DNA of 64,000 bases from Escherichia phage vB_EcoM_ESCO49. The DNA is taken from the sequence record OM386663.1. One strand, 5' to 3'. The notes under the pieces are model-generated. The model did no database searches and had not been told where the DNA came from. It saw only the letters and a program-made list of their open reading frames with translations. The position numbers and the translations under genes were made by a program. Within the stretch, counting starts at the first letter, position 1; each line of letters begins with the position of its first letter. Positions 23,193 to 56,280 of this stretch are shown piece after piece.

Positions 23193-23355
23193 GGAGAAAC
23201 CACAATGTACGTCAGAGACATACTGTATAAGTCTTCCTATAAAGTATAACTCTGTAAAAAAGCCCTGTCTAAAAATACTCTTCGGTAGCGAAAGGAAGAA
23301 TACTTATAGCAGGGCATTATTATTATTTTAATTGAGAGAGAGTAAAATAACTTGG

Positions 23356-23428
23356 AGAATCCGAAGGGACTTGAACCCTTATAAACCTGTTTTGCAGACA
23401 GGCACATATCCATTTCTGTCACGGATTC
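23356..23428 (-). tRNA. tRNA-Cys (GCA)
   Basis: acceptor 7 bp, T-arm AAGGG-TTCAAGT-CCCTT, anticodon stem CCTGT/ACAGG, loop CUGCAAA. Confidence 0.7.
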
Positions 23429-23436
23429 GAAATTGG

Positions 23437-23525
23437 GGGAAGATACCAGACTTGAACTGGTACACCGATTTCTCAGCTACTGGCAGTTTAGCAAACTGCT
23501 CCCTTACCTTTAGGGTTAATCTTCC
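23437..23525 (-). tRNA. tRNA-Ser (GCU), long variable arm
   Basis: 89 nt; T-arm, anticodon stem GCAGT/ACTGC, plus-strand loop TTAGCAA. Confidence 0.65.
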
Positions 23526-23526
23526 A

Positions 23527-24309
23527 TTATCTCTGTAATGCGCTCTTCATTTCTGGTGTTGCAATAGTATCAATCACACCAGTTTTACAAGCATCATCAA
23601 ACCAGTCTGGTAAGATACCTGCTAAGAACCCATTGATATTCGTTTTAAGGTACTCTGCAATAAGGGCAGCTTCTTCTTCAATCATCTGCACAACTTCATC
23701 TGCATAAGCTGTAATCTTTGAGATACCTTCATTAATCTTACTAACAGCCTGATTAGCTAAATCAGAAACAGTCTCAAGACCCTTATCAATAGCGTCTTGT
23801 AAGTCACTTAACACACCATTAACACTGTCTAGTGTGCTGTTAATCATGTCAATAGCTTGCTGACCATACTCTGTAGCAACACCCATAATACCACTAAATG
23901 GTGTACAACCAACTTGTTCTCCTGCTGCACCCATAACATTGGAGTATCCCTTTGCTACCTGCATACGTGATGAAAACTCATCAATAGACTTTTGACCGTA
24001 GTCTGTTAGGGTCTTAGTAGTTGCTGTAGTGCTTGTAAGGCTTGTTGTAAAGCTGTTTAGAAGGACTGTTGTGAGTCCAGCAGCAACAAGCTTCTCCTTC
24101 ATTGTAGGGTCTGTTACAGAGCTAATAGAGCTTACAAGTGATGTAGAGGCAGCTACGGTTCCACCGAGAACTGCTGCACCAGTAATAAGTGGGTTAGAAA
24201 ACCCTCTACCGGTTTTTAAGAGATTAAAAATCTCCTTACCTTGTTCTGTCATCTCTTTCATTAAGCACCTTTGAAATTGGTACTCCATATCGGATTCGAA
24301 CCGATACAT
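23527..24309 (-). CDS. hypothetical protein
   Basis: 260 aa; Ser/Thr/Ala-rich middle; embedded in tRNA region. Confidence 0.4.
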   Translation of the reverse strand: MYRFESDMEYQFQRCLMKEMTEQGKEIFNLLKTGRGFSNPLITGAAVLGGTVAASTSLVSSISSVTDPTMKEKLVAAGLTTVLLNSFTTSLTSTTATTKTLTDYGQKSIDEFSSRMQVAKGYSNVMGAAGEQVGCTPFSGIMGVATEYGQQAIDMINSTLDSVNGVLSDLQDAIDKGLETVSDLANQAVSKINEGISKITAYADEVVQMIEEEAALIAEYLKTNINGFLAGILPDWFDDACKTGVIDTIATPEMKSALQR

Positions 24310-24356
24310 AACACAGATTTTAAGTCTGGCCTCTCTGCCAATTGGAGTAATGGAGC
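24281..24356 (-). tRNA. tRNA, anticodon read as UAA (Leu-type), standard length
   Basis: acceptor GCUCCAU/AUGGAGU (G1-U72), T-arm ATCGG-TTCGAAT-CCGAT, 4 bp anticodon stem, loop CUUAAAA, A73. Confidence 0.5.
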
Positions 24357-24362
24357 ATTGGC

Positions 24363-24434
24363 TGGGGATGTTGGAATTGAACCAACTTCTTCGATTTCAA
24401 AGACCGAGGTTTTAACCTTGTAAACTAATCCCCT
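24363..24434 (-). tRNA. tRNA-Gln (UUG)
   Basis: T-loop TTCAATT; anticodon stem with one G-U; plus-strand loop TTCAAAG. Confidence 0.6.
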
Positions 24435-24442
24435 TTAAATCT

Positions 24443-25000
24443 TTACTTTCTCAGTGGATGAATAAAGAATGCCAACATAACTCTTTCCCTTGAGAATGCT
24501 CTTTCTTCTGGGACAACACTTTTTAGTTTCCATCCAATATAAATTCTCCAGTAAAACTGTTTACCAAAGATTTTAATTGATGGGATAAAAGCGAATAATC
24601 CCCAAGCATTGCTATTCCACATTAGGAGATAACCAGTCTGATTATCTTCAGGGTCAGAACTTACGCTGATATTACCTTTCCACTTAGTAACATCTTTTAC
24701 ATCTCTTCCTAATACATGGTAAGAGAAGTTATAAGCTTTGTTTCTCCAGAGCCATCCAACTCTCTGCATGTAGACACCCAGCTTACCAATCTTTCTAATC
24801 TTAGCCCATCTTTTAACGTGGCCTTCATCACCATCAATCGGGTTGTCATAGGTCTCCATCCATCTGAATCCAAAAGGTAGATGCCCTTTCTTCTCACTGT
24901 AGAATGGAACCACGAAAGGTGCTAAGATGACTGCTAGGGTTGCTGCAAATGGTTCTAGTAAAGCTAGGAAAATCCATGAAGCATACTTCAAATATCTCAT
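24443..25000 (-). CDS. hypothetical membrane protein
   Basis: 185 aa; hydrophobic N-terminus; between tRNA genes. Confidence 0.4.
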   Translation of the reverse strand: MRYLKYASWIFLALLEPFAATLAVILAPFVVPFYSEKKGHLPFGFRWMETYDNPIDGDEGHVKRWAKIRKIGKLGVYMQRVGWLWRNKAYNFSYHVLGRDVKDVTKWKGNISVSSDPEDNQTGYLLMWNSNAWGLFAFIPSIKIFGKQFYWRIYIGWKLKSVVPEERAFSRERVMLAFFIHPLRK

Positions 25001-25022
25001 CTAAATAGCCTCTTAAAATTGG

Positions 25023-25098
25023 TGTTCCAAGACGGATTCGAACCGTCACTAATACAAGGTTTGAGCTTGCATCCTCTGCCAATTGGGATACTGGAACA
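25023..25098 (-). tRNA. tRNA, anticodon read as CAA (Leu-type), standard length
   Basis: T-arm GACGG-TTCGAAT-CCGTC perfect; acceptor 7 bp with one G-U; loop CUCAAAC; A73. Confidence 0.5.
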
Positions 25099-25101
25099 TG
25101 G

Positions 25102-25173
25102 TACTCACTAAAGGACTTGAACCTTTTTCTTCATCTTGTAAGGGTGATGTTTTACCATATAAACTAAGCGAGT
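25102..25173 (-). tRNA. tRNA-Val (UAC), tentative
   Basis: T-arm AAAGG-TTCAAGT-CCTTT; D-arm GUUU-AUAUGGUA-AAAC; anticodon stem with one mismatch; plus loop TTGTAAG. Confidence 0.5.
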
Positions 25174-25271
25174 GTGAAAGAGGTCTGAAGTTGTGCCGCT
25201 AACTCAACTCCGTGGAATTTGTTACGGTCTTCAGTTGACACCAGCGGTCTTTCACTTGACCTCTGAATTGG

Positions 25272-25345
25272 TGCTGCTCACAGGACTCGAACCTGCATTT
25301 CCATCCTTACAAGGGATGTGTAATAGCCAATTATACGAAAGCAGC
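25272..25345 (-). tRNA. tRNA-Thr (UGU)
   Basis: perfect anticodon stem CATCC/GGATG, loop CUUGUAA; T-arm and acceptor present. Confidence 0.7.
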
Positions 25346-25354
25346 ATTATTTGG

Positions 25355-25426
25355 AGCATCCAGAGGGAATCGAACCCTCAACCTCAGTTTGGAAGACTGT
25401 AATTTTCCCGTTTAAACTATGGATGC
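25355..25426 (-). tRNA. tRNA-Gly (UCC)
   Basis: T-arm GAGGG-TTCGATT-CCCTC; acceptor perfect; loop CUUCCAA. Confidence 0.6.
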
Positions 25427-25435
25427 ACTAATTGG

Positions 25436-25508
25436 TGGAGAAGCAGGGAATTGAACCCTGTACTTAAGTTTGCAAAACTTATGTTTTAACCATGTAAACT
25501 ACATCCCC
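25436..25508 (-). tRNA. tRNA-Ala (UGC)
   Basis: anticodon stem TAAGT/ACTTA, loop UUUGCAA; acceptor GGGGAUG with G3-U70. Confidence 0.6.
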
Positions 25509-25517
25509 AATGTTTGG

Positions 25518-25590
25518 TACAGGTGGAGGGAATTGAACCCATCGTCTTACTGATTAAGAGTCAGCCGCATAACCATTTTGCTACACCTGC
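25518..25590 (-). tRNA. tRNA-Lys (CUU)
   Basis: plus loop TTAAGAG; acceptor 7 bp; T-loop TTCAATT with short GGG/CCC stem. Confidence 0.55.
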
Positions 25591-25600
25591 ATTAATTTGG

Positions 25601-25674
25601 TACACCTAGAGAGATTCGAACTCACACTGAGCAGATTCTAAGTCTGCTGCCTCTACCAGTTGGGCTATAGGTGC
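25601..25674 (-). tRNA. tRNA, anticodon read as UAG (Leu-type), standard length
   Basis: perfect anticodon stem GCAGA/TCTGC, loop CUUAGAA; acceptor 7 bp (G1-U72); D-loop with GG; A73; 5 nt variable loop. Confidence 0.55.
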
Positions 25675-25750
25675 ATTAAACCTTTTTAGAGAACTTCTAA
25701 GAACCTAAGCAACAAGGTTCCACAACAAGCCGTAATAACCTTAGAAGCCC

Positions 25751-25773
25751 TCTAAAAAGACCTAAAAAGGTCT
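25751..25773 (-). terminator. weak terminator-like hairpin (AGACC-n6-GGTCT plus U-run)
   Basis: 5 bp stem followed by UUUUAG on minus RNA. Confidence 0.3.
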
Positions 25774-25930
25774 TTGCATAGTCTTGTTTAATCCGGTGAC
25801 TAGAACCTTTGGAGAGCTTGATATTATCTCTTCTCCGTGACACCTGCTAGGTGCTTTATGAGTGTGTACGACAATACACGCGGGATACCAAAGCAACACC
25901 CTAATGAAGCTTGGCTTTAAATCTTATTAG

Positions 25931-26018
25931 GCGGTAAGTAAAGGAGTCGAACCCTCACCGTATCTCTACAGTGGCAACTGTTTTCAAGACAGTTTGGCTA
26001 CCATTAGCCGCTACCTAC
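25931..26018 (-). tRNA. tRNA-Ser (UGA), long variable arm
   Basis: 88 nt; anticodon stem AACTGT/ACAGTT 6 bp, plus loop TTTCAAG; acceptor 7 bp incl. one G-U. Confidence 0.55.
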
Positions 26019-26034
26019 CCCTAATAAGACTTTG

Positions 26035-26114
26035 GCATGGGACGGAGGAGTTGAACCCCTTTGAAACGGTGTTGGAAGCCGTTGCTCATGCCTTAGAGTC
26101 TTAACATCGTCCCA
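26035..26114 (-). tRNA. tRNA-like gene, identity unresolved (aberrant core)
   Basis: perfect 7 bp acceptor ATGGGAC/GTCCCAT, encoded CCA, T-loop TTCAACT; internal stem AACGG/CCGTT with 9 nt loop CUUCCAACA; extra nucleotides before D-arm. Confidence 0.4.
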
Positions 26115-26261
26115 TACTATAATTCGAAGCTTACCGTATTATCTCAACACTGTAAAGCCCCTTCTCAGATTATTTACATGTTCTGGAAAACATGAGATAC
26201 AGACCACCTCCCTACAGGAAGACCCGCTTAGGTCGTCTAAGTAATCTGCTAACTAAATTGG

Positions 26262-26340
26262 TCGAGGCGGCAGGACTCGAACCCGCATACTCCACTTACT
26301 CGGTTAACGTCTGTTTAGAAGACAGATGAGATACGCCCCG
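26262..26340 (-). tRNA. tRNA-like gene, identity unresolved (anticodon-like loop CUUCUAA, Arg-UCU-like, displaced)
   Basis: acceptor CGGGGCG/CGCCUCG all paired, T-arm GCAGG-TTCGAGT-CCCGC; perfect TCTGT/ACAGA hairpin sits where D-arm is expected. Confidence 0.35.
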
Positions 26341-26680
26341 TAATTATCTTTAAAGACTCTCTTAGAAAGCCCTTAAAGATGCCCACCTTATTAATCATAC
26401 CGTGGGCTAGTACGCCAAATTCTTTGATGAGGGATTGGAAGACCTCACTGGTGTTTAGCCTATCAAGCTACTGCCAGAAAAACATTGTCGTTTGCATTTA
26501 TTTTAAATTTGCAAAATAGACGCTACGCAACGAAAACTATTCAGAATATGTACAACAAATTTCCCCACATTGTGTTACGTCTAACGCTCATGTATTGGTG
26601 TTTGAATTATACATATTATGAAGTATTTTAGTTACTATAAAGTGGTCACATCTCAATGTCAACAACTTTATTGAAATTGG

Positions 26681-26753
26681 TACTGGTAGGTGGAATCGAA
26701 CCACCGACGTTCCCTTATCAGGGGAGTGTTATAACCTTCTTAACTATACCAGC
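26681..26753 (-). tRNA. tRNA-Ile (GAU)
   Basis: T-arm GGTGG-TTCGATT-CCACC perfect; plus loop TTATCAG. Confidence 0.6.
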
Positions 26754-26757
26754 TTGG

Positions 26758-26831
26758 AGGTTCAGATGGGAATCGAACCCACATTCATAGGGCTTATGAG
26801 ACCCTTGCATTACCTTATCTGCGACTGAACC
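26758..26831 (-). tRNA. tRNA with CAU anticodon (Met or Ile2)
   Basis: perfect acceptor GGTTCAG/CTGAACC; plus loop TTATGAG. Confidence 0.55.
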
Positions 26832-26838
26832 ATTTTGG

Positions 26839-35844: not shown

Positions 35845-36344
35845 TTTACGAAGAAAGATACAAGATAGATTACCAGAAGACTGGTCATCATGTCTCCCTA
35901 AGAGTAACAAAACCGAATGGAGATACCGGTATCATAGCACATTTTGGTGGTGATTATTGGTACGGTACAGGTTGCTTTGAAGGCTACACTCAAGAATACT
36001 TGAAAGCTTTCTACAGAGACTTTACAAATGACTACAACAGGCTTGTTGACGAAAAGAATAAGTGCATTAAGCATGAACACCGTGCCAGAGGTTGCCTAAG
36101 TATTGTTATGGTACTGGCGTTCTTCTTAGCAATGTTACTGACAGTATCAGTAATTAGCTGCATAGCTCAAGATTTGACAATTACACAGATTACTGCAAAG
36201 CTACATGATATCTGGTACTTGTATGTTGTTCCTTTAGCTGGTATCATCATCTCACTAATGAGGTTCAGAGTTCATAAGAAACGACTTAAGGACTCTGAAG
36301 TTAAACTTGAAGAGGTAAGTAAAGAATGCAACCTACAATTATAG
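35841..36344 (+). CDS. hypothetical membrane protein (two predicted TM helices; holin not excluded)
   Basis: start at MIYEERYK overlapping upstream stop (ATGA); hydrophobic stretches LSIVMVLAFFLAMLLTV and LYVVPLAGIIISLM. Confidence 0.4.
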   Translation: MIYEERYKIDYQKTGHHVSLRVTKPNGDTGIIAHFGGDYWYGTGCFEGYTQEYLKAFYRDFTNDYNRLVDEKNKCIKHEHRARGCLSIVMVLAFFLAMLLTVSVISCIAQDLTITQITAKLHDIWYLYVVPLAGIIISLMRFRVHKKRLKDSEVKLEEVSKECNLQL

Positions 36345-36420
36345 CTTTATGTGTTCGTTTTGCAATCGCTGAAATGATTAACAAGGCAATCTTAAAAGAC
36401 GCCTATGGAGAGACTAAGTA

Positions 36421-36645
36421 ATGATTAAGACACCTGTACCAATTTTTGGATTTCCTTCTATAGAAGAATTTAAAGTTTATCTTGACAAAAACTTCTACAA
36501 CGAGCAGCCTGTTACTTTACTGAAGAGTGACTTATCAGAGCTTCTTGATATGATTATCAAGGCAACTCCTGAGAAGGAACCTGAACAGAAAGCTGAGAAG
36601 AAGACTAGTAAGAAATCCGATAAGAAGACTGAAAAGTCTGAGTAA
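36421..36645 (+). CDS. hypothetical protein with Lys/Glu-rich tail
   Basis: 74 aa; RBS GGAGAG. Confidence 0.35.
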   Translation: MIKTPVPIFGFPSIEEFKVYLDKNFYNEQPVTLLKSDLSELLDMIIKATPEKEPEQKAEKKTSKKSDKKTEKSE

Positions 36646-36697
36646 TAACTTAGGGGTTACTTGATAGCCCCTTTGTAGAAACTTAGAAGGTAGCGAA

Positions 36698-37108
36698 ATG
36701 AAAATTAAAGAAGTAGTCCAAAAAGCAATGCTTGACAACTCAACTAAAGATGAAATGTACAATGATATTTGTGATAAGTTGAATTGCTCAAGACATGCTG
36801 CTAAGATTCTTGTGCACTGTTTTATCTGGGAATGCTCAGAAGCTGGTGAGAATCTAAAAGAACCTGAAGTGAAAACAGTCCCTAAAGTTGGTAATGTATA
36901 CCGTCTTAAAGACTTCAAGACTGGAAAGATTGTTGCAAAAGGTGTAGTAGAGTCTGTCTATCATGATGGTAAATACTTACTTAAAATATTTGAATATGAT
37001 AGCCGCTATACACACTTGTGCGGTCTTACATTCTTAGTAACAGAAGAAGACCTCATTAAAAACAATGACAACAAGTTTGCAGTACCAGATTACCAAGTTT
37101 TACGATAA
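36698..37108 (+). CDS. hypothetical protein
   Basis: 136 aa. Confidence 0.4.
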   Translation: MKIKEVVQKAMLDNSTKDEMYNDICDKLNCSRHAAKILVHCFIWECSEAGENLKEPEVKTVPKVGNVYRLKDFKTGKIVAKGVVESVYHDGKYLLKIFEYDSRYTHLCGLTFLVTEEDLIKNNDNKFAVPDYQVLR

Positions 37109-37121
37109 TGGTGTGATAGCT

Positions 37122-37670
37122 ATGGAAAAAGATAACTTAAAAGAAGTTGAAGGTAACTACCTAGTCCTTGACTGGAGTGATATTCGAGAAGCATTATCCA
37201 AAGAAAGCCTTGACATACTGGAGCAGCTTGTCTTCTCAGTACGACATATCAGAGAAGTTAGGAATGGTAAAGAGCCACTTGAAGGAATCTTTGTAGAGAA
37301 GTCTTATCCGTTCTATGAAGACACTTTACAGAAAGTTAAAATGTACTTTAAACAGAAGAACCGTAAAGTGGTCACTATGGTATCTCTTGGTGGGCAGAGT
37401 ATGTCTATTATGGAAGATATCAATCCTAAGAGACCAAGTAAGGGTGTCTGTATAAAAATCACAGGGCATGAAGAGTATATCTCAATTGATGATTTTAGTG
37501 CACTCTGTAATGGTTCTGCTGTCTTTAATGGGTTTCACTATGATATCCGAGTGTACCCAATCAAGGGAGATGCTGTTATGATGCAGATATTTGATATCAA
37601 TGGTGGATTTACTCATTTTTATCAGACAACCAAGTCATCATTGAAGACAGTTTTAGAAAGTCTGATTTAA
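37122..37670 (+). CDS. hypothetical protein
   Basis: start placed at MEKDNLKEVEG to avoid overlap with upstream gene; start uncertain. Confidence 0.35.
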   Translation: MEKDNLKEVEGNYLVLDWSDIREALSKESLDILEQLVFSVRHIREVRNGKEPLEGIFVEKSYPFYEDTLQKVKMYFKQKNRKVVTMVSLGGQSMSIMEDINPKRPSKGVCIKITGHEEYISIDDFSALCNGSAVFNGFHYDIRVYPIKGDAVMMQIFDINGGFTHFYQTTKSSLKTVLESLI

Positions 37671-37680
37671 AATATCTTAA

Positions 37681-37708
37681 GAGCCTCCTTAATTGGGGGC
37701 TTTTTATT
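37681..37708 (+). terminator. terminator-like hairpin
   Basis: AGCCTCC/GGGGGCT stem followed by TTTTTATT, end of plus-strand block. Confidence 0.5.
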
Positions 37709-37710
37709 GA

Positions 37711-39360
37711 GTGAAAATTACGAAATTTATAATTTTTATAAAATTTTATCGGTTGTCCCAACCTCTGGGTCACCATCATACGTGAATAAAATATCTATCC
37801 TTCTTAACAACCTTCTTAATCTTACTCTCTATATAGTTATATAGTACTATATAGTATCTTAGTAACTATCTAGTGGTCTTAATAGCCTCTCTGTATAACC
37901 CTTCTAACAAGCCTTCTAACAAGCCCTCTAAACACTCTTCTAACAAGCCTTCTTAATAACCTATACAATCACCTTAACCATCCCTCTATACCCTCTTAGA
38001 AGCTCCTATACACCTCTTAATCTCTATGTTACCTATGATACCCTCTATAGGTGTTCACTAGGCACTACTAAGCCTCTATATAGACTGTTTTAACAAACTT
38101 AACAGGAATATCTTTACAGACCTTATCTCACAAGGCCTAACACGGTACTAACAAGGTATCTTATAAACCTGTTTATGCCTGTATTTTAGAAAGACTGTAT
38201 AGGTAATTATTCAGAATTTTAATTTTTTTTATAAAATAGGACTGTCAAGTCATTTTTTAGGGTCTTTGAAGGAACTCAAAAATATCTGTCTAGGATGTAT
38301 ATCTGCTTGGTAGCCCTTAACAGCCCTGTAACATCCCCTTTGCAAAATTTTAAAATATCATTAACAAACTCTTAACAACTCTCTCAAGCTCTTAACATCT
38401 CTCCAAAGGTCTTAACAAATTCTTAATAGTTTTAACAAGAGGGTAACAAATTTCTAACAAGTGCTGAAAAGGCTTTACAGAATCTTAACAGATGATTAAC
38501 AAGAGCTAACAAGTTAATTTTTAAGGGTTATTTTGTTAAGATAATTAACAAGTTCCTAACAAGTATTTAACCTTTTTAACAAGCTATTAACATGGTCACT
38601 ACTCTTTTCTTATCGTTCCCTTTCTCTCTTAGTGATTCTCTAAACATACCTTTTAAAAGCTCTCTATAGCTCCTTGTAAGCTCTTTTAAGCCTCTTCCTA
38701 GTAATTACACCCCAACTATACAGACACCTCTTTATAGAGCTTTACAGGAGCTTTTAAGGCTATGTCAAAGACTCTTACAAGGCTTTTACATGGTATTAAC
38801 AGAGATTTAACAAGGGGCTAACAAGTTGCTAACAAGCATAACTATGTAGGGATTGTTAAGAATTTGTTAAAAAGATGTTAAAGGGGCTAGCATTTACGTA
38901 ACTTTTACGTAACTTTTGAGTAACTTTATAGCCCCTATAACATACTTTTAAGACACTATCAAGCCCTTTTTAGTAGTTCACGAGATACTAGTCAGCCTAT
39001 AAGCTTATACCCTTATAAGGTTCTTTTAAGCCTCTAGAAAGCTTTATAAAGGGCTTTTAAGGGTGAGGTAATGCAATCCCTTAAGTTATATTGATAAGGC
39101 TGTTATAGGGCTTTATAGGGCGTTTTAGGGGTTGCCCTTCCCTTTCGGGTTATGGGCTTGTATTTAAGGGAAAGATTAGTTGATTTGATAAAAGGCTATA
39201 GAATAAGCTATAGAGTTATTGCTTTTTAAGGTATGGGATAGAGTCTATCGAACCAGTGGGGAGATTCTGGAAAGGTGAGGGAAAGGGTTGTATAAGGATT
39301 CGATAGACGTAAAAAAGCCCCATTTAAGGGGCTGTATAAAGGTATCTGGGGCTATTTAGC
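37711..39360. repeat. 1.65 kb ORF-free, G-poor region with at least 14 exact TAACAAG iterons plus CTATAG-rich and ACGTAACTTTT repeats; candidate origin or regulatory array
   Basis: no ORF of 60 aa or more on either strand; motif counted by eye (3 near 37905-37950, 1 near 38147, 7 in 38430-38580, 3 in 38800-38850). Confidence 0.6.
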
Positions 39361-44750: not shown

Positions 44751-44812
44751 TTTTAGATTCTCCTAGTTTAAGGCTATCGGGCTTATCGCCCTGTCTGATG
44801 CAAATACTAGAT
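44751..44812 (-). promoter_or_regulatory. partial cassette (RBS half plus short hairpin GGGC-n5-GCCC)
   Basis: CATTTTTAGATTCTCCTAGTTTAAGG shared with other cassettes. Confidence 0.4.
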
Positions 44813-44994
44813 AACCCCGTTCAAATAGTCAATAAAATTTTTAAAAATATTTTTGGCAAAAATGTAATGAAACGGGTGCGCGCGAATACCACAAAACAGA
44901 ACACAAATCAAGAATTATTTTTCAATCCGCTACAAATTTTTCTGTTGACTTTTCTTTTCGGATGTGGTAGCCTTGTGAGAAATGGCGACATCCC

Positions 44995-45195
44995 CACCTA
45001 CACCCACCTACCTGCACAATTCTAAAATGATTTTTCTTGCCCGACCTGATTTTTCTCTGCACGTTTTGAAAATGAAAAAGCTCTTTGGAGATTACCTGCA
45101 CAGTTTGAAAATGAATTTTCTCTTTGGAGTTCAAGATTTTCTCTACAGATTTCTCTATAGAAATATACCTGCACAATTCTGAAATGAAAAAGCCC
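44995..45195. repeat. three degenerate direct repeats (ACCTGCACA[AG]TT[CT]T[AG]AAATGA...CTCTTTGGAG) in an intergenic region
   Basis: copies near 45004, 45093 and 45166 read by eye. Confidence 0.5.
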
Positions 45196-45261
45196 TCCTT
45201 ACCTGAAAAAATCTACCAGATAAGAAAGGCTTAGTCTATTGTGAATATTATACAGAGTTTC

Positions 45262-46047
45262 TTAGTTCTTTGCGTCTAAGAAGGTTACTTCCGGTGAAGA
45301 GAAGACCGTCTCAATATCCTCATCAGTTCTTGCATAGATGTATGTATCTGCATCACTGCCAAATGTTACAGCTATCCTGTGATTGCTCTTCGACAGGTGG
45401 GTAACTAGAGCGTTACTTAGAGACATCTTTTCAACCGGAGGGTTACTTTGATGTATCTTACCTTTTCTTCGTCTGAAGAGGGTAACTGTATTGTCCGTGA
45501 ACACAACTACACCTGCAAAGTATTCTGGTTCACAGTAGTTTTTCCAACCTGAGTGTAACTCGTTGTACATCTCTGTCTCGTAGACATACAGATAAACATC
45601 TACGCTCTTCATAACCTGATTGATGATAACTGTGACAGCTTGAGGGTCCAGCCCACCGATACCTGCACCAATCATAGGTAGGCCAACCTTCTTCAACTGG
45701 TTAACTTCACAGTATCTGTTAAGTTGCTTCAAAGATGACTCTAAAGCACTGTATCGGGCGTCTTTACCAGTCTTAAGCTGAGTGTAAAGGTTAGCTATAC
45801 GACCTTGTTTTAAACGTGCTACAGAGAAGTTACCCAGTAAATTTTCACAGGGTTTGTGGCCTATACCACCTGCATAGATGTAAACTTCTGTATCGGTCTC
45901 ATATGCTTTTGGGTAAAGTTTAGAAATCTTGTCAGCGATACCTGCACCCATTAAATTCATACAGTTGCAACCGTGACCAATGATGTCAAACTTACCTTTA
46001 TCAAAGGCGTCAAAGATATCACCATTGATGATTTTTACAATACCCAT
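45262..46047 (-). CDS. macro-domain (ADP-ribose binding/processing) protein with C-terminal extension of unknown function
   Basis: 261 aa; N-terminal GDIF...DIIGHGCNCMNLMGAGIA and LPMIGAGIGG Gly-rich motifs. Confidence 0.6.
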   Translation of the reverse strand: MGIVKIINGDIFDAFDKGKFDIIGHGCNCMNLMGAGIADKISKLYPKAYETDTEVYIYAGGIGHKPCENLLGNFSVARLKQGRIANLYTQLKTGKDARYSALESSLKQLNRYCEVNQLKKVGLPMIGAGIGGLDPQAVTVIINQVMKSVDVYLYVYETEMYNELHSGWKNYCEPEYFAGVVVFTDNTVTLFRRRKGKIHQSNPPVEKMSLSNALVTHLSKSNHRIAVTFGSDADTYIYARTDEDIETVFSSPEVTFLDAKN

Positions 46048-46248
46048 TTAACATCTCTCCCAAGATTCTTTATCTTCTGAAGGCTTTACACGTTGCCCTT
46101 CGTGGTCTACCCAGATGCACCCACAGCCTTCACAGATTACTGGCATTGCATAACCAGCTTTAAAGTCATCTTCAGTGATAAGACCTTTTAAGTCACCTGT
46201 ATCACGTCCAAACATTTCGATAGAACAGTCTTTGCAGAAGTCAGCCAT
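46048..46248 (-). CDS. hypothetical Zn-ribbon-like protein
   Basis: 66 aa; CxxC...CxGCGC. Confidence 0.4.
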   Translation of the reverse strand: MADFCKDCSIEMFGRDTGDLKGLITEDDFKAGYAMPVICEGCGCIWVDHEGQRVKPSEDKESWERC

Positions 46249-49416: not shown

Positions 49417-50526
49417 TTAGATTTCACGTTTACGTTGGGAGATAAGTTCTCCAGCAGTACCAACGATGACATGTAAAGCTTCAGTCTTGCCATCCCATGC
49501 TTTCAGCACTTTACGTTGATTATCAACGATTGCTGCAACTTCATAACGAGACGAGCGCATCTTCATATCGTTGTAATCAGTTGGTACGGATACAACGTCT
49601 CGTGGATGGACACGAACCTTCAGAATTGTGTCACCTGAGAAGCAACGAACATAATCCCAAGCACCAACATGAAGACCTTGAGAGCAAGTCACGTTACGAT
49701 TATTATCAACCATCCAACGTGGCATTTCTACAATGTTACCCAAATCATTAGGTACTCTGTGGGTGTGGGAGTCAACCAGCTTGCCTTCACGAGTAGATAC
49801 TTTCTTCCAACCAATGATGTAGCCTTCTTCATCAATTTCAACATCAAGGTGAGATACAAAGCCCCAAAGTTGTTCTACAGAGTCTTTAGATGGGTTTTCC
49901 ATCAGTTTTTCGAAGAACATCACGAGGCGTTCAAAACCTTTATCTCCAGTCTTCATCATGTGAAGAATACGGTCAACCAGAGTAGAACGCATCTCAACAG
50001 CACCGTAGAATAGCTTGTCACCTTTGATTGTGATAGCGCCCTGAGTGAAGTTTTCGATAGACTTACGAATATTCATCAGTTCAAATGCTTTCTTGAACTC
50101 ACCTTTCACAACATGAACTACAATCTCTTGATAGTTCGGATGAGTAGACTCAACAATTTCAGATTCTGAACCATAAGTCATAATTACAGAATCACCAGTA
50201 ATCATGTACTCAATATTGTCATCTTTCTGCATAGCTTCATGCAGTTTATTTACCGGAGCTTTCTGTACAGACTCTTTAACGACCTTTTCAACTTGTTTGC
50301 CAGATTTCTTTTTAAAGGTCTTAGCAACTTGCTTCAAAGTCTTCGTAGCTGGTGTAGAAGTCGCCTTCTTTTTCCCTTTTAAGGTTGCTTCATGACGCTC
50401 TACAGCACGACCAACTGAACGGGTTGAAGTATTAAATTTCTGTGCAATAGCTGTTTTAGTCAGCTTACCTTCTTTAACCAGTTTGTAAATTTCTGCGTCA
50501 ATCTGTGCTTTAGTTTTAGTAGTCAT
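49417..50526 (-). CDS. rIIB: rIIB protein
   Basis: 369 aa directly downstream of rIIA; N-terminal helix-turn-helix-like segment as in T4 rIIB. Confidence 0.7.
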   Translation of the reverse strand: MTTKTKAQIDAEIYKLVKEGKLTKTAIAQKFNTSTRSVGRAVERHEATLKGKKKATSTPATKTLKQVAKTFKKKSGKQVEKVVKESVQKAPVNKLHEAMQKDDNIEYMITGDSVIMTYGSESEIVESTHPNYQEIVVHVVKGEFKKAFELMNIRKSIENFTQGAITIKGDKLFYGAVEMRSTLVDRILHMMKTGDKGFERLVMFFEKLMENPSKDSVEQLWGFVSHLDVEIDEEGYIIGWKKVSTREGKLVDSHTHRVPNDLGNIVEMPRWMVDNNRNVTCSQGLHVGAWDYVRCFSGDTILKVRVHPRDVVSVPTDYNDMKMRSSRYEVAAIVDNQRKVLKAWDGKTEALHVIVGTAGELISQRKREI

Positions 50527-50605: not shown

Positions 50606-52972
50606 TTAATCGTAAATTGTTGTACCTTCTGGAACACATTTCACATTAAAGCCTAAAAACTTACTCACTTCGATAGGTGATACCTTATTCCAATCTAAGT
50701 GTGAAAGCAAGAAGTTTTCTTGTTTTCTTTTTGAAAGATAGTTTGTCAGCTTGATAACCATGCGGTCACCTGCTTTCTTAATCTTTTTGTACAGTTTTGT
50801 GTCATTATCAAGGCATGACTTCAAATCCTGAAGAACACTGATAGTGTAAGTGTATGCAAACGGTGCAGCCACATACTGAATCTTACCAAACATTGCCTCA
50901 ACAGCATCTTCATTCCCTTCTAAGAAGATTGTCTTAATAGTATCCCTTGAATAACAATACCCGCGAGAAATCTTCCTGTTATTGAACGTAAAGTTTCTGG
51001 CAATAATCCTACTGCTTGTAAGGTCGAGGACACCATCCATGTAGATGCGTGTCATATACCTGTTATGGTTAATCCAATGAACATCAGTTAAGCTGTCGTT
51101 CAAGAGCTTCTCATCTACTTCAATCCAGTCTTCTGGTATCTTTTTCCAATTTGCTTTTCGGAAAACATAGACTGTCTTACCTGTAACATTAGCAACTGAC
51201 TTAGCTACATCCTCTGGAGATGAGCAAAAACATCTACCATCAACTGTGTCACCTACTGCCTTAATATAAAGCTGAGGCTCTTCAATTGTGTCTAAGTCTT
51301 CTGACACCTCTTTGTATGAAGCTTTAGTTTCTGCTGGAACAGCTTTCCAGAGTTTTACAACACCTCTTACAGCTTCTTTACGCTGATAGTGATGTTCCTT
51401 ATCAGACATCTTCACAATCTTTAACAAGCTTTTATCAAGTTTGTGCAGATTGATTAAGTCATCTAGCTCTTTCTCTGTAGAGAATACAAAGACAATACCA
51501 TTGTATCTGTGAAACAGATTTGACTCACTGGCGTAGTCTCGACATGCACCACGCAAAATTTGATTGCGTCCTACAGTCTTCTCAGTACCGTTTTTATTGC
51601 GACGGTCATTAATCACGAACAAAAACTGTTCAATTTGGCTTTTACGCATTGCACCAAAGATATTGAACATGCTTGCCTCTTGAGTGTAGGAAAGTGCTGT
51701 TACACGAATCTTACTCTCTAAAGAGTTGAACTTGACATAAGCAACTGGGTCATAAAGATAATCTACTTTAGGGATATTGTTCCCGTTCCTATCAACCTTA
51801 ATATTGCCTTTACCGTCACGTTCATAAATGACTGAGCCGTCTTCTGCGTAGATAATTCCACGACGAATGTTTAACAATTCTTCTTCCAGAGAATCAAGCT
51901 TAACGCCTCCCCACTCTAGCTTTGGACACACAGCATTAAACATCTCTCGTGAGTTCAAACGTAACTCTGCATAAGCCTGTGCAGCATCCATGAGTGTAGG
52001 TTGGCTATTAACTTTCTTGATAACATCCTTTGTAATTGCTTCAGTTATCTTTTTGGTAGCCTCGATGATAACATTTTTTGTCGTATCATTCATCTGCAAT
52101 GCTTCACGAGAAGCTGCTATAGCAACTGAACCAATAGGCATGTAGATGTTTACAAGGTCTACGCTCCTACGGAAAAACTCTGGCAAGACTTTGAAGAAAT
52201 CATCACCAAGTAATGCTTCCATGTTCACTGGATAGGCAATATTACCCATCACCACATTAAACTCTATCCTATTACCACTAGAACGCCAGCTTTGCTTATG
52301 AATCATGGCATCATAAACACCTTCTTCACGGGCAATGACGTTCATATCTGCTAATACATCGTCGTACTCAATATTACTTTCTGGTTTTACAGCAAAGTAT
52401 GAGTACACATTTCCAGCTTCTTCAAAGAACTTTGAGATACGGTGGTCAGCAACTGCCACACGTACAGCTAAACCATTAGGTTCTTTTGTTGGGTTAGTGG
52501 TCAGCTTAGTTACTTGAGGGATACCATTCTCAAGATAAACAGAGTACTTATTAACAACACCATCAACATAGCTAGATACTGTGAATGACTGAGCAATTGC
52601 AAATGGGGATTTTGAGCCGATACCCATTGCACCAATGTAGTCATTAGAGTCATTCTTCGTAGAAGCCCCGTAGTTTAGGTACAAACTCATAACTTTATCA
52701 TGAGTCAATCCAGTTCCAAAATCACGAACTTCAAAGTAAGGCTCAAAACGAGTAGGTAAATGCACATGGAACGGGATATTCTCTTTTCCAGCTTCTTTCT
52801 GAGCATCTACTGCATTGCATGACAGTTCACGAATCACTGCCCTTTCTTTAAATGTGTATACACCAGAACTCAGAAGGCTGAACATTTCAGGTGTCATTGT
52901 AATCTGTGCTTGAGATGTCTCCAAAGAAGTTGAACTCTTAATCACTTCTGCGTGGTCATTTACCATGCGCAT
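50606..52972 (-). CDS. rIIA: rIIA protein
   Basis: 788 aa; N-terminal region RAVIRELSCNAVDA...FEVRDFGTGL...YIGAMGIGSKSPFA matches T4 rIIA ATPase-like N-terminus. Confidence 0.85.
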   Translation of the reverse strand: MRMVNDHAEVIKSSTSLETSQAQITMTPEMFSLLSSGVYTFKERAVIRELSCNAVDAQKEAGKENIPFHVHLPTRFEPYFEVRDFGTGLTHDKVMSLYLNYGASTKNDSNDYIGAMGIGSKSPFAIAQSFTVSSYVDGVVNKYSVYLENGIPQVTKLTTNPTKEPNGLAVRVAVADHRISKFFEEAGNVYSYFAVKPESNIEYDDVLADMNVIAREEGVYDAMIHKQSWRSSGNRIEFNVVMGNIAYPVNMEALLGDDFFKVLPEFFRRSVDLVNIYMPIGSVAIAASREALQMNDTTKNVIIEATKKITEAITKDVIKKVNSQPTLMDAAQAYAELRLNSREMFNAVCPKLEWGGVKLDSLEEELLNIRRGIIYAEDGSVIYERDGKGNIKVDRNGNNIPKVDYLYDPVAYVKFNSLESKIRVTALSYTQEASMFNIFGAMRKSQIEQFLFVINDRRNKNGTEKTVGRNQILRGACRDYASESNLFHRYNGIVFVFSTEKELDDLINLHKLDKSLLKIVKMSDKEHHYQRKEAVRGVVKLWKAVPAETKASYKEVSEDLDTIEEPQLYIKAVGDTVDGRCFCSSPEDVAKSVANVTGKTVYVFRKANWKKIPEDWIEVDEKLLNDSLTDVHWINHNRYMTRIYMDGVLDLTSSRIIARNFTFNNRKISRGYCYSRDTIKTIFLEGNEDAVEAMFGKIQYVAAPFAYTYTISVLQDLKSCLDNDTKLYKKIKKAGDRMVIKLTNYLSKRKQENFLLSHLDWNKVSPIEVSKFLGFNVKCVPEGTTIYD

Positions 52973-53547: not shown

Positions 53548-55329
53548 TTAAAGCTGCTTGTCAATAATATTTCGAATATCACCAAGAGTTGTGTAACCGA
53601 ACTGCTCAGAGTCGCTAAAGACTAAACGTAAAGCACAAGCTGGGTGGTCAAGTACGTCTGCAAAACTCTGGAATCCATAGCCATCTACAGCTTTCAGCTT
53701 ATCACCATCCCACATAGGTGCTACACCACCAAAGGCAGACTTCTTAACACCACTATCTGTTTTAGGGTCTTTTGCAAGCATAATCTCTTTACCACCAATG
53801 CTTGCAAGAGTTGCTTTGACAGCAAATGCAAAGGTGTCACGAGTCATGTACTGGTAAGTGTAAGAGCCTACACCAAATACTACGTTAGAGCTTGCAAAAC
53901 CCATTTCATACAGACGATTCAGGATTTCGTTTGCACGTTCCAGCGTGATAGAGTCACCATAGATAAGGCCGATGTGCTCATCCAGTACCTTAAACCCTTT
54001 AGAGTTAATAGTTCCCCCAAAGATGTTGTACAGTGTCTTAATAGCTCCATCAATTTCAGCTACAGGACGTGTTACAACATTTGCAGAACCAACCATATAA
54101 GCATTCTTCAACATCACCGTATCAGCAACTTCAAAGTCTTCTCTGTCAACAACCATTTCGTAGCCTTCTGACAGTAGCCATCCAGCAATACCATAGTCGA
54201 TGTTTTCAAGCTTCATGTTCAGAACAGCATTCAACATTGTGTCGCTGGCTTCCAGCTTGCTTAGGTGCTCGTAATAAGCCTTCTTAGCACATTCTAAGTG
54301 GATTGCTTTATAACCTGTGACAATATGTACAGGGTCTCCAGAGTCAGGACGAATTACCAGTTTGCCATCACGTTCCATAATTTCTTTACGAAGTGCTGGT
54401 AAAATTTCTGACACAGCTCTCCAGAAGTTATAAGTGTCTGAAACAATACTTGCAATACCAGTTGGGTAAGTTTCTGTTAAGAAACGACGGAAGGTTTGCA
54501 ACTCACCTTTAAATCGTCTTTCTTCTTCAACCAACTCGTTACCACCTTCCCAAGCAATGTTTGCACACATTACAGAGTGTTCAGTGGCTGGTACAGAGCT
54601 TCCAATATCAGAGATTGGATAGGTCTGCCCATAGATACGTTTAGCCGTGTATACAGCAGGGAAGCTATCAGTCCCTTTAAAGCTGGTTAAGTGGCCTACA
54701 GCATTGAATGCGTCATCAGTAAAGCCTGACATACCACGCATAGCAAAGTCATGGCACTGATAAGGTAAATGCAAGTCATTGTCGCAAGTAAGGTCAGCCC
54801 ACTTCTTACAGATACGTTTGTAGTGTAATGCAATAGTAGCAATGGTGCAAGCTTTCCAAATCTCAGCAGAGAAAGCATCCTCCAGATACCCTGCTACCCA
54901 ATGGAAACCTGAAACAGTGTTCTGGAAGACAATCATTGGGACACGCATCGGGACAACTGTGCCTTCTTCTACAGCGTATACTTCAACCGGTAGATAACCT
55001 AAGTCGTGAAGTGCTTCCCAATGCTCTCGACCGATAGCATCTTTACCCAGAACACCATTCATGACTTCTAAGATTTCGTCAACTGCTTCTTTTTTATCAC
55101 GTTCAAAGAAAGTGGCGTTCCAGTGGTCTATTAAGTAATCTTTAACAAAACGTTGAATACCAAAAGCCACTACACCATCAATTGCTAAGGGGCTGTTAAA
55201 CCATTTATCACTACGTGGTGTCAGGTTGAACATCAAGTATTCTGTTGCACTAGGGTACTGGTAAACATGACCAGATTTGTAAGCATCTGCGTTTAAACCT
55301 GCTGGTACTGCATAAAGTGATTTAGTCAT
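53548..55329 (-). CDS. nicotinamide phosphoribosyltransferase family protein (NadV/NAMPT-like; Namat not excluded)
   Basis: 593 aa; motifs ADAYKSGHVYQYP, HDFAMRG, SVPATEHSV, IRPDSGDP. Confidence 0.8.
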   Translation of the reverse strand: MTKSLYAVPAGLNADAYKSGHVYQYPSATEYLMFNLTPRSDKWFNSPLAIDGVVAFGIQRFVKDYLIDHWNATFFERDKKEAVDEILEVMNGVLGKDAIGREHWEALHDLGYLPVEVYAVEEGTVVPMRVPMIVFQNTVSGFHWVAGYLEDAFSAEIWKACTIATIALHYKRICKKWADLTCDNDLHLPYQCHDFAMRGMSGFTDDAFNAVGHLTSFKGTDSFPAVYTAKRIYGQTYPISDIGSSVPATEHSVMCANIAWEGGNELVEEERRFKGELQTFRRFLTETYPTGIASIVSDTYNFWRAVSEILPALRKEIMERDGKLVIRPDSGDPVHIVTGYKAIHLECAKKAYYEHLSKLEASDTMLNAVLNMKLENIDYGIAGWLLSEGYEMVVDREDFEVADTVMLKNAYMVGSANVVTRPVAEIDGAIKTLYNIFGGTINSKGFKVLDEHIGLIYGDSITLERANEILNRLYEMGFASSNVVFGVGSYTYQYMTRDTFAFAVKATLASIGGKEIMLAKDPKTDSGVKKSAFGGVAPMWDGDKLKAVDGYGFQSFADVLDHPACALRLVFSDSEQFGYTTLGDIRNIIDKQL

Positions 55330-55374
55330 CTTTTAATCTCTCTCAAAATGGGGTTTTTAAGCCCCTATAAAGTT

Positions 55375-56280
55375 TTAATCAAGGTTTGCTACAGTAACTT
55401 GACCATAATGTGTTAAGCCACGGTCTTTAGCTTCCCCTAAAGAGTTTGTAGTGTAGATATGGTCAATGCCATTGTCAAGAAGGTTTTCAACATCTTTAGA
55501 GAAGATACCATGTGTTACATAAAGTTCCACACGTTTTGCACCTGCTTCACGAAGATGTTTCGCTGCTTCTATGAAGGTTCGACCACCATCACAAATATCA
55601 TCAAGAATCATGACAGTTTTATCTGTCAAATCAACATCATCAAGGATTCGCATACCAGTTATTTCACCAGTCTTAAGGTTGCGTACTTTAGACATTGTGA
55701 TATATGGTTTATCCACCTCTTTAGCAGTCTCTGCAATCTTCTTAGAAGCACCTGCATCTGGGGCTACTAAGTAATCAATCAGAGGGTCATTTGCATAGTG
55801 GACTGCAATCTCCTTTTGAGGAATACTTTGGAAGCAGTTGAAAAGGTTATCTGGAACGTAACTATGAGGGTCAACTGCACAGACTGCATCAAAACCCATT
55901 GCATTAACCTGTTGTGCAAACACTTTCAAAGCTGCTGCATCACCTTTAAACATGTGACGGTCGTAACGTGCATTTGGCAAATAGTAAAAGATAGCAGTCT
56001 TCATAGCAAACTTATGAGGTACTAAATCATCAATTGCTTCTTTAGCAAGTGCCACAGCAAACAATGTGTCCTTGTCATAGCCTTTTACAATAATAACCAC
56101 ATTGTTGATGGATGATGCTGCATAAGCAGTAAAATCAACAAGCTCTTGTGAAAAGTGTCCACCAATCTCACCAGAAGGGAACTGGATGATGTTAAACTCT
56201 TCTTCATGAGACCCTTTTGTCGGTGAATGAATTATAACACGAATCGATGTCTTCATAGTTTTCCCTCTCTTTATTCCCAA
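55375..56280 (-). CDS. ribose-phosphate pyrophosphokinase family protein (Prs-like; ADPR-PP synthetase not excluded)
   Basis: 301 aa; FPSGEIG, VAPDAGASKK, MILDDICDGGRT motifs; true start may be the internal Met (MKTSIRV). Confidence 0.65.
   Translation of the reverse strand: MGIKRGKTMKTSIRVIIHSPTKGSHEEEFNIIQFPSGEIGGHFSQELVDFTAYAASSINNVVIIVKGYDKDTLFAVALAKEAIDDLVPHKFAMKTAIFYYLPNARYDRHMFKGDAAALKVFAQQVNAMGFDAVCAVDPHSYVPDNLFNCFQSIPQKEIAVHYANDPLIDYLVAPDAGASKKIAETAKEVDKPYITMSKVRNLKTGEITGMRILDDVDLTDKTVMILDDICDGGRTFIEAAKHLREAGAKRVELYVTHGIFSKDVENLLDNGIDHIYTTNSLGEAKDRGLTHYGQVTVANLD

Follow-up and report, generated by a model that had tools for sequence, protein, structure and literature searches.

The 64,000-nucleotide stretch of DNA analysed here (the window) belongs to Felixounavirus, a genus of FelixO1-like myoviruses, whose hosts are E. 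coli and Salmonella. The 4-kb region around the gene of interest matches over 200 deposited genomes of the genus at 92–97% identity. The gene lies at positions 45262..46047 on the minus strand and encodes a two-domain macrodomain protein. An earlier reading of the DNA, made from the letters alone (the sequence-only reading), had placed an ORF here, and that ORF is real: it is a complete coding sequence of 261 aa plus stop in the ORF list, with its frame intact. The full-length gene is present in about 257 deposited phage genomes, and PHROG 335 covers residues 1–260 of the protein (E = 4e-113). Orthologues in Felixounavirus are labelled macro domain protein, phosphatase, O-acetyl-ADP-ribose deacetylase or hypothetical protein.

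The ATG of the macro gene immediately follows the TAA (46048-46050) that ends the upstream ORF, an arrangement that indicates translational coupling. A Shine-Dalgarno-like GGGAGAG, read from the sequence at 46055..46061 on the minus strand, is located 8 nt before the ATG. The 66-aa CxxC protein abutting upstream was considered as a conserved partner and dropped; its conservation is limited to Felixounavirus and Mooglevirus. Neither a tRNA nor a credible Rfam match was found in the gap flanking the macro gene, so an RNA gene there was rejected. The ten neighbouring ORFs include no DarT or ADP-ribosyltransferase gene, have no relevant Pfam match and fall into PHROGs of unknown function.

A NARP1 pair is encoded on the same strand at 53548..56280, about 7.5 kb upstream of the macro gene in the direction of transcription. 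Adps, which is PRPP-synthetase-like (55375-56280, minus strand), was identified by Pfam Pribosyltran and Pribosyl_synth and by NCBIfam, and Namat, of the NAMPT family (53548-55329, minus strand), by Pfam NAPRTase and NAMPT_N and by NCBIfam. Genes 79-80 of Bas63, itself a Felixounavirus, are the NARP1 pair as first discovered, and the Adps and Namat of the window are orthologues of these validated genes. What the sequence-only reading took for a candidate NAD+ reconstitution pair is therefore a real one, orthologous to the archetypal NARP1 of Bas63. Gene order is collinear across the genus and runs Adps, Namat, rIIA, rIIB, lysin, a HAD/PNKP-like gene, spanins, small ORFs and the macro gene. About 14 ORFs separate the macro gene from the NARP1 pair, and it is not within two genes of NARP1. 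Among Escherichia phage records, 993 have the macro protein versus 191 with Namat; the macro family is thus independent of NARP1, since most Escherichia phages that carry it are without Namat. The NARP1 pair is a possible consumer of any ADPR that the macrodomain may release.

The N-terminal macrodomain comprises residues 1–157 (45577..46047, minus strand). Residues 25–141 match PF01661 (Macro) at 32.6 bits, above the gathering cut-off of 22 (E = 8.7e-8), and the predicted three-layer alpha/beta/alpha macro fold with two Gly-rich ADP-ribose-binding loops is found within residues 1–157. Both results bear out the macro-domain call made from the sequence alone for the N-terminal ~160 aa. The closest PDB sequence match of the domain is TARG1/OARD1, and its dN/dS is 0.06 across six Felixounavirus orthologues. 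Classification by profile, which the sequence-only reading had suggested as a check, assigns the protein to the TARG1/DarG/Poa1p macrodomain class. Within this class it falls in the phage Tk.4 (AdfM/Adpp) family.

Gly-rich loop 1 (MGAGIA, residues 33–38) and the preceding His25-Gly-Cys-Asn28 make up a predicted ADP-ribose binding and catalytic region (45934..45975, minus strand). H25, N28, G34, A35 and G36 are invariant in all 19 family members aligned. Gly-rich loop 2 (IGAGIGGLD, residues 126–134; 45646..45672, minus strand) was located in the same alignment, where G127, A128, G129, I130, G132, L133 and D134 are invariant. Between the loops lies the motif NLYTQ (residues 86–90; 45778..45792, minus strand), which is invariant across the 19 members and is also found in T4-type Tk.4. 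A HMMER alignment to TARG1 places Gln90 at the position of the catalytic Lys (TARG1 Lys84, DarG Lys80); the match to DarG K80 was made through TARG1 K84, which the literature equates with it. H25 and N28 are the counterparts of Gary Adpp H24 and N27, the residues mutated in the Adpp study, and N28 is also the counterpart of DarG N22 and PhiKZ AdfM N23.

The Lys84/Asp125 dyad of TARG1 is missing from the alignment, with Gln90 and Gly131 at those positions. Gln at the Lys position is common to the window protein, T4 Tk.4, Gary Adpp and SCO6735 of Streptomyces coelicolor. Loss of the dyad was not taken as a sign of inactivity, because SCO6735 is also without both residues yet is active, because T4-type Tk.4 and Adpp proteins carry the same Gln, and because the His and Asn required in Adpp are invariant here. 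Absence of catalytic residues, together with a lack of ADP-ribose binding in vitro, had been named in the sequence-only reading as an outcome that would count against the call. The TARG1 dyad is indeed absent, but active relatives share the Gln, and His25 and Asn28 are kept. Judged by the alignment, the Gln-type active site of the Tk.4 family is intact in the window protein.

The secondary structure of the AlphaFold2 model places a linker helix at residues 158–167 (45547..45576, minus strand). Its sequence is variable, and substitutions between close relatives concentrate in it. Residues 168–261 (45265..45546, minus strand) form a beta-rich module, an orphan domain found in Ounavirinae-like phages only. 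The ~100 aa at the C-terminus that had been left unassigned from the sequence alone remain so: they match no Pfam family, and they are encoded in an intact frame with a dN/dS of 0.31, versus 0.06 for the macrodomain of the same six Felixounavirus genes. The module is constrained by purifying selection and evolves about five times faster than the macrodomain. Fast evolution of such a module is a pattern typical of host-interaction surfaces.

A profile search of 1.84 billion representative proteins with the C-terminal module recovered only Ounavirinae-like fusion proteins and two fragments of those. Long multi-stretch matches of the profile were spurious and came from repeat proteins or a concatenated retroelement. 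No second copy of the module was found in the 64-kb window, and comparison of its model with the PDB matched no solved structure. Modelled alone, the module consists of a helix, six strands and a C-terminal helix (pLDDT 78.7). It is alignable and keeps its length in all two-domain members, down to ~16–23% identity. P174 and G179 are invariant, and the linker helix is followed by an aromatic-x-N-x3-P-x2-F-x-G segment. The architecture of linker and C-terminal module is conserved in all Ounavirinae-like members; the Kolesnikvirus protein, for example, is also ~255 aa. Divergent two-domain members sit in contigs of the same synteny, which suggests that the fusion is old and lineage-wide.

Net charge of the module ranges from -5 to +4 among orthologues, and this variation disfavours both a dedicated DNA-binding domain and a DarG-like acidic DNA mimic. 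No polar catalytic-type constellation is conserved in the module, its conserved residues are structural only, and it is predicted to be non-catalytic. It is probably dispensable for basic activity, because T4 Tk.4 works without one. Packing of the two domains against each other is suggested by the full-length model, whose pTM is high. Most likely the module binds a partner or a substrate, candidates being the modified DNA and a protein of either the host immune system or the phage.

Two members of the macrodomain family have been named in separate preprints of 2025-26. From a transposon screen tk.4 emerged as the only gene that T4 needs on cells expressing DarTG2, and a clean tk.4 knockout sensitised T4 to DarTG2; on this evidence, which is genetic only, the gene was renamed adfM (bioRxiv 10.1101/2025.11.20.689424). 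Adpp of Vibrio phage Gary, encoded inside an Adps-Namat operon, dephosphorylates ADPR-1''-phosphate to ADPR in vitro; ADPR-1''-phosphate is what the RES-domain defence aRES produces, and Adpp lets NARP1 rebuild NAD+ (bioRxiv 10.64898/2026.01.28.702374). The window protein shares 34% identity with Tequatrovirus Tk.4 (E = 2e-24) and 28% with Chester gp175, in essence the Gary Adpp (E = 2e-14); with the macro protein adjacent to NARP1 in Pseudomonas phage PPSC2 it shares 36%. Tk.4 and Adpp are 39% identical to each other (E = 1e-26), and by this comparison AdfM (T4 Tk.4) and Adpp (Gary) are one sequence family. Since they share a family, sequence cannot cleanly separate the two activities.

Placement within the family was examined in an alignment of 35 sequences, comprising Ounavirinae proteins, Tk.4-type proteins, 11 Adpp proteins (Table S1 of the Adpp paper), metagenomic stand-alone proteins and TARG1. 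The loop after the Gln is 3–7 residues longer and aromatic-rich (Q-Y-N/H-Y/W...) in all 11 sampled Adpp proteins, and Ounavirinae proteins and most Tk.4 proteins have a short loop of TARG1 length; this loop-length signature is an empirical observation of the present analysis, not a validated specificity determinant or a published criterion. A neighbour-joining tree recovered the Ounavirinae clade in 171 of 200 bootstraps, placed within the Tk.4-type sequences and distant from Gary Adpp. NARP1-linked proteins were never monophyletic and were scattered over the tree, one of them grouping with the Tk.4 of an Acinetobacter phage. The split between Ounavirinae and Adpp proteins was found in 192 of 200 bootstraps, a value that is nearly trivial given the monophyly of Ounavirinae and carries no weight. 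Loop length and tree position moderately favour an AdfM-like assignment over Adpp.

The window protein resembles T4 Tk.4/AdfM in sequence family, the NLYTQ motif, the Gln at the catalytic-Lys position and the short loop that follows it, and both are encoded by early-region genes of lytic Enterobacteria myoviruses. Unlike the window protein, which has 261 aa with a linker helix and a ~95-aa module, Tk.4 is a single domain of ~159 aa, within a range of ~155–160 aa for stand-alone proteins of this type, and T4 is without the NARP1 that the window phage has. Gary Adpp (KNV71_gp137) shares the conserved His, Asn and Gln and a Poa1p-like macrodomain, and the window phage, like Gary, encodes Adps and Namat. 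Adpp proteins differ in being single domains of 150–165 aa encoded inside or within two genes of NARP1, whereas the window gene is ~7.5 kb away, and in having the longer aromatic loop where the window protein has the short form.

From these data we infer that the protein counters host defence by hydrolysing an ADP-ribose conjugate at its C1'' linkage. It would be a two-domain enzyme whose Gln-type macrodomain binds ADP-ribose and cleaves the bond at ribose C1''. Its main job as an AdfM would be removal of DarT2-attached ADP-ribose from thymidines in single-stranded phage DNA, allowing replication to continue. The released ADP-ribose could be recycled by the phage's own NARP1 enzymes, and the same active site possibly dephosphorylates ADPR-1''-phosphate as well, which would also feed NARP1. 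The fast-evolving, lineage-specific beta-rich module would pack against the macrodomain and bind the partner or substrate.

AdfM-like activity on DarT2-modified thymidine in phage ssDNA is the best explanation of the gene, held tentatively at somewhat under even odds. It is favoured because the protein is homologous to T4-type Tk.4, whose knockout sensitises T4 to DarTG2, because no variation is seen at H25, N28 and Q90 or in either Gly loop, and because SCO6735, which hydrolyses dT-ADPr in DNA, needs its Gln at the Lys position for catalysis. It is further favoured because the post-Gln loop is short and without the aromatic extension of the sampled Adpp, because the Ounavirinae clade nests among Tk.4-type sequences, and because the macro gene lies outside the NARP1 operon. 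It is weakened because the AdfM that has been validated biochemically, that of PhiKZ, is Lys-type and the case for T4 AdfM is genetic only.

PhiKZ gp104 (the AdfM of a chimallivirus) is a Lys-type DarG-like macrodomain that strips DarT2 ADP-ribose off DNA in vitro (PMC13309987). Like the window protein, it is a phage macrodomain of the DarG class, directed against DarTG2, with the active-site Asn conserved. By its published description it differs in keeping the catalytic Lys (K78) where the window protein has Gln; it is also imported into the phage nucleus, a structure that FelixO1-like phages do not build. SCO6735 cleaves thymidine-linked ADP-ribose from DNA, its Gln85 is essential, and Q85A abolishes activity (PMC9411070). 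It is of the TARG1/DarG (ALC1-like) class, is without both dyad residues and has Gln at the Lys position, as does the window protein; unlike it, SCO6735 is a single-domain bacterial housekeeping or stress protein. The family profile did not detect SCO6735 at E < 0.01, so the shared Gln may be convergent.

Two roles offered by the sequence-only reading have precedent in homologues: reversal of ADP-ribosylation-based defence in T4 Tk.4/AdfM (against DarTG2) and PhiKZ AdfM, and supply of ADP-ribose to NAD+ rebuilding in Adpp (NARP1-AP). As activities of the window protein itself, they lie beyond what its sequence can decide.

The second of these roles would make the protein an Adpp acting in trans, that is, mainly an ADPR-1''-phosphate phosphatase that turns the product of RES-type NADases (aRES) into ADPR, from which Adps and Namat would remake NAD+. 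The arrangement would amount to the NARP1-AP pathway with its third gene ~7.5 kb from the other two, and it is compatible with a role as AdfM. The phage carries the archetypal NARP1, with the macro gene, Adps and Namat on one strand in one collinear block, and aRES occurs within the host range of such phages, namely in E. coli, Klebsiella and Enterobacter. Gary Adpp is required against aRES and acts in vitro as a phosphatase on ADPR-1P; its residues H24 and N27 are conserved here, and the identities to Gary/Chester Adpp (28%) and to the NARP1-adjacent PPSC2 protein (36%) fit the same role. Against it, the gene is ~14 ORFs from NARP1, and the table of Adpp carriers (Table S1, bioRxiv 10.64898/2026.01.28.702374) holds no enterobacterial or FelixO1-like phage, FelixO1-like phages being missing from it because of that distance. 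The aromatic post-Gln extension of all 11 sampled Adpp is also absent, the protein is closer to Tk.4 than to Gary Adpp in the tree, and T4-like phages keep the family without NARP1, as the Escherichia phage records indicate (993 vs 191). Action as Adpp in trans is possible, but we regard it as rather unlikely.

An improbable but more elaborate proposal is that the protein is a functional analogue of the whole of DarG. The macrodomain would erase the DNA mark, and the beta module would directly bind and block DarT2 or an NAD+-consuming effector such as aRES; in a variant, the module would dock the enzyme onto Adps/Namat and channel released ADP-ribose into NAD+. If the DarG analogy holds, one polypeptide would combine two modes of inhibition. 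The DarG2 antitoxin (NCBIfam NF048014, PADLOC DarG; PDB 5M31, 5M3I, 7OMU) differs from the window protein in several respects. The window protein scores 48.4 bits against an equivalog cut-off of 250, the catalytic Lys80 of DarG2 is replaced by Gln90, and no DarT gene adjoins the window gene. The DarT-binding half of DarG2 (NF048014 profile positions 152-338) is unmatched by the C-terminal module, which is also not consistently acidic in the way an ssDNA mimic should be.

A general de-MARylase or O-acetyl-ADP-ribose deacetylase of the TARG1/OARD1 kind, acting on proteins, RNA or OAADPr and reversing an ADP-ribosyltransferase unrelated to DarT, is very unlikely. TARG1/OARD1 is the best PDB sequence match and some GenBank records bear the deacetylase name, but these names were transferred by similarity only. 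The Lys84/Asp125 dyad for protein de-ADP-ribosylation is replaced by Gln90/Gly131, no ADP-ribosyltransferase gene occurs among the ten neighbouring ORFs, and no phage homologue has been shown to act in this way.

Least probable of all is a hydrolase or sponge for a C1''-linked immune signal such as His-ADPR of type II Thoeris, with the module aiding sequestration or oligomerisation: macrodomains do bind His-ADPR in Thoeris ThsA, the C1''-N linkage chemically resembles the dT-ADPr bond, and other phage enzymes adjoining NARP1 break down Thoeris signals to ADPR, but no homologue has been shown to act so, known degraders and sponges of Thoeris signals have other folds, the C-terminal model matched no solved PDB structure and hence no solved sponge, and nothing here supports the degradation of ADP-ribose-derived, Thoeris-type signals that the sequence-only reading had raised.

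The literature searched describes neither this two-domain architecture nor the orphan fold of the C-terminal part; the macrodomain adds a member to a family whose characterisation dates from 2025-26. Compact, well predicted, fast-evolving and fused to a putative anti-defence enzyme, the C-terminal module is reasonably chosen for structural and interaction work. In phage therapy and in the typing of E. coli and Salmonella, FelixO1-like phages are common. Should the macro protein be an AdfM, as preferred here, these phages would be pre-armed against DarTG2. If it instead acts as Adpp in trans, the count of aRES-beating phages, which is based on NARP1-adjacent genes only, would be too low. With AdfM and Adpp apparently forming one family, a single active site may perform both counter-defence roles, a possibility that can be tested.

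The window encodes orthologues of the archetypal NARP1 pair for NAD+ rebuilding, Namat and Adps (Bas63 genes 79–80), on the minus strand at 53548–56280. The pair is upstream of rIIA (50606–52972) and rIIB (49417–50526) in one collinear minus-strand block, with the macrodomain gene (45262–46047, minus strand) at its end. The macrodomain gene is translationally coupled to a minus-strand ORF at 46048–46248, which encodes a 66-aa protein (PHROG 2210) whose CxxC...CxxC pattern may mark a zinc ribbon. Conservation of this small protein is limited to Felixounavirus and Mooglevirus.

An ORF-free gap (44751–45261) just downstream of the macrodomain gene contains four direct repeats of ~25 nt each at 45009–45202 (minus-strand consensus CTTTTTCATTTTCAAnTTGTGCAGGTA). 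The repeat core has three exact matches in the 64-kb window versus 0.15 expected, and a motif search of the same window detected no further copies outside the array. All four copies are kept in Felixounavirus, Mooglevirus Sf17, and also Kolesnikvirus ST-3; the copies themselves are conserved and the DNA surrounding them has diverged among these phages. The repeats are followed by a sigma70-like promoter (TTGACT-17-TAGTAT, 44832–44804). The repeats may serve as an iteron or origin element; alternatively, they may form an array of operators or phage promoters.

Elsewhere in the window, a cluster of 19 tRNA genes is encoded on the minus strand at 23353–27708. One of these, tRNA-Leu(taa) at 24278–24356, overlaps the annotated start region of a DUF7217 ORF (23527–24309), and the true start of this ORF is therefore probably further downstream than annotated. 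A minus-strand gene at 27873–29288 adjoins the cluster, and its 471-aa product contains DUF2828 and DUF7788 domains. The sole plus-strand block in the window spans 30000–38000, and GC skew becomes positive at ~30–38 kb. Within this block, the ORF at 31366–32499 encodes a 377-aa protein composed of three immunoglobulin-like domains, probably a capsid- or tail-decoration protein.

Product names in the Pseudomonas phage PPSC2 record (MF893340.1) appear to be displaced by one gene. In this record the name "macro domain protein" is attached to a 584-aa Namat homologue, and the actual macrodomain protein, the 165-aa orf140, is entered as hypothetical.

An alignment of 35 macrodomains covers the loop that follows the active-site Gln (residues 90–99 of the window protein). 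The 11 NARP1-linked Adpp proteins in the sample all carry a version 3–7 residues longer and rich in aromatic residues, and the loop is short in the Ounavirinae two-domain proteins and most Tk.4-type proteins. Based on this alignment, loop length is a candidate signature of specificity.

T4-type Tk.4 (Tequatrovirus locus L004, 1498–1974) and phage Chester gp175 (L007, 2950–3423), which is essentially the Adpp of Gary, are 39% identical in pairwise comparison (E 1e-26). Active-site His, Asn, and Gln residues are common to Tk.4 and Adpp. One preprint gives T4-type Tk.4 the name AdfM, for anti-DarTG2 (bioRxiv 10.1101/2025.11.20.689424), and another describes Adpp as the ADPR-1''-P phosphatase of NARP1-AP, in which Adpp accompanies the NARP1 pair (bioRxiv 10.64898/2026.01.28.702374). 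Judged by sequence, T4-type Tk.4 and Adpp are a single family under two names with two proposed substrates. Because they form one family, one active site may serve both the AdfM and Adpp roles.
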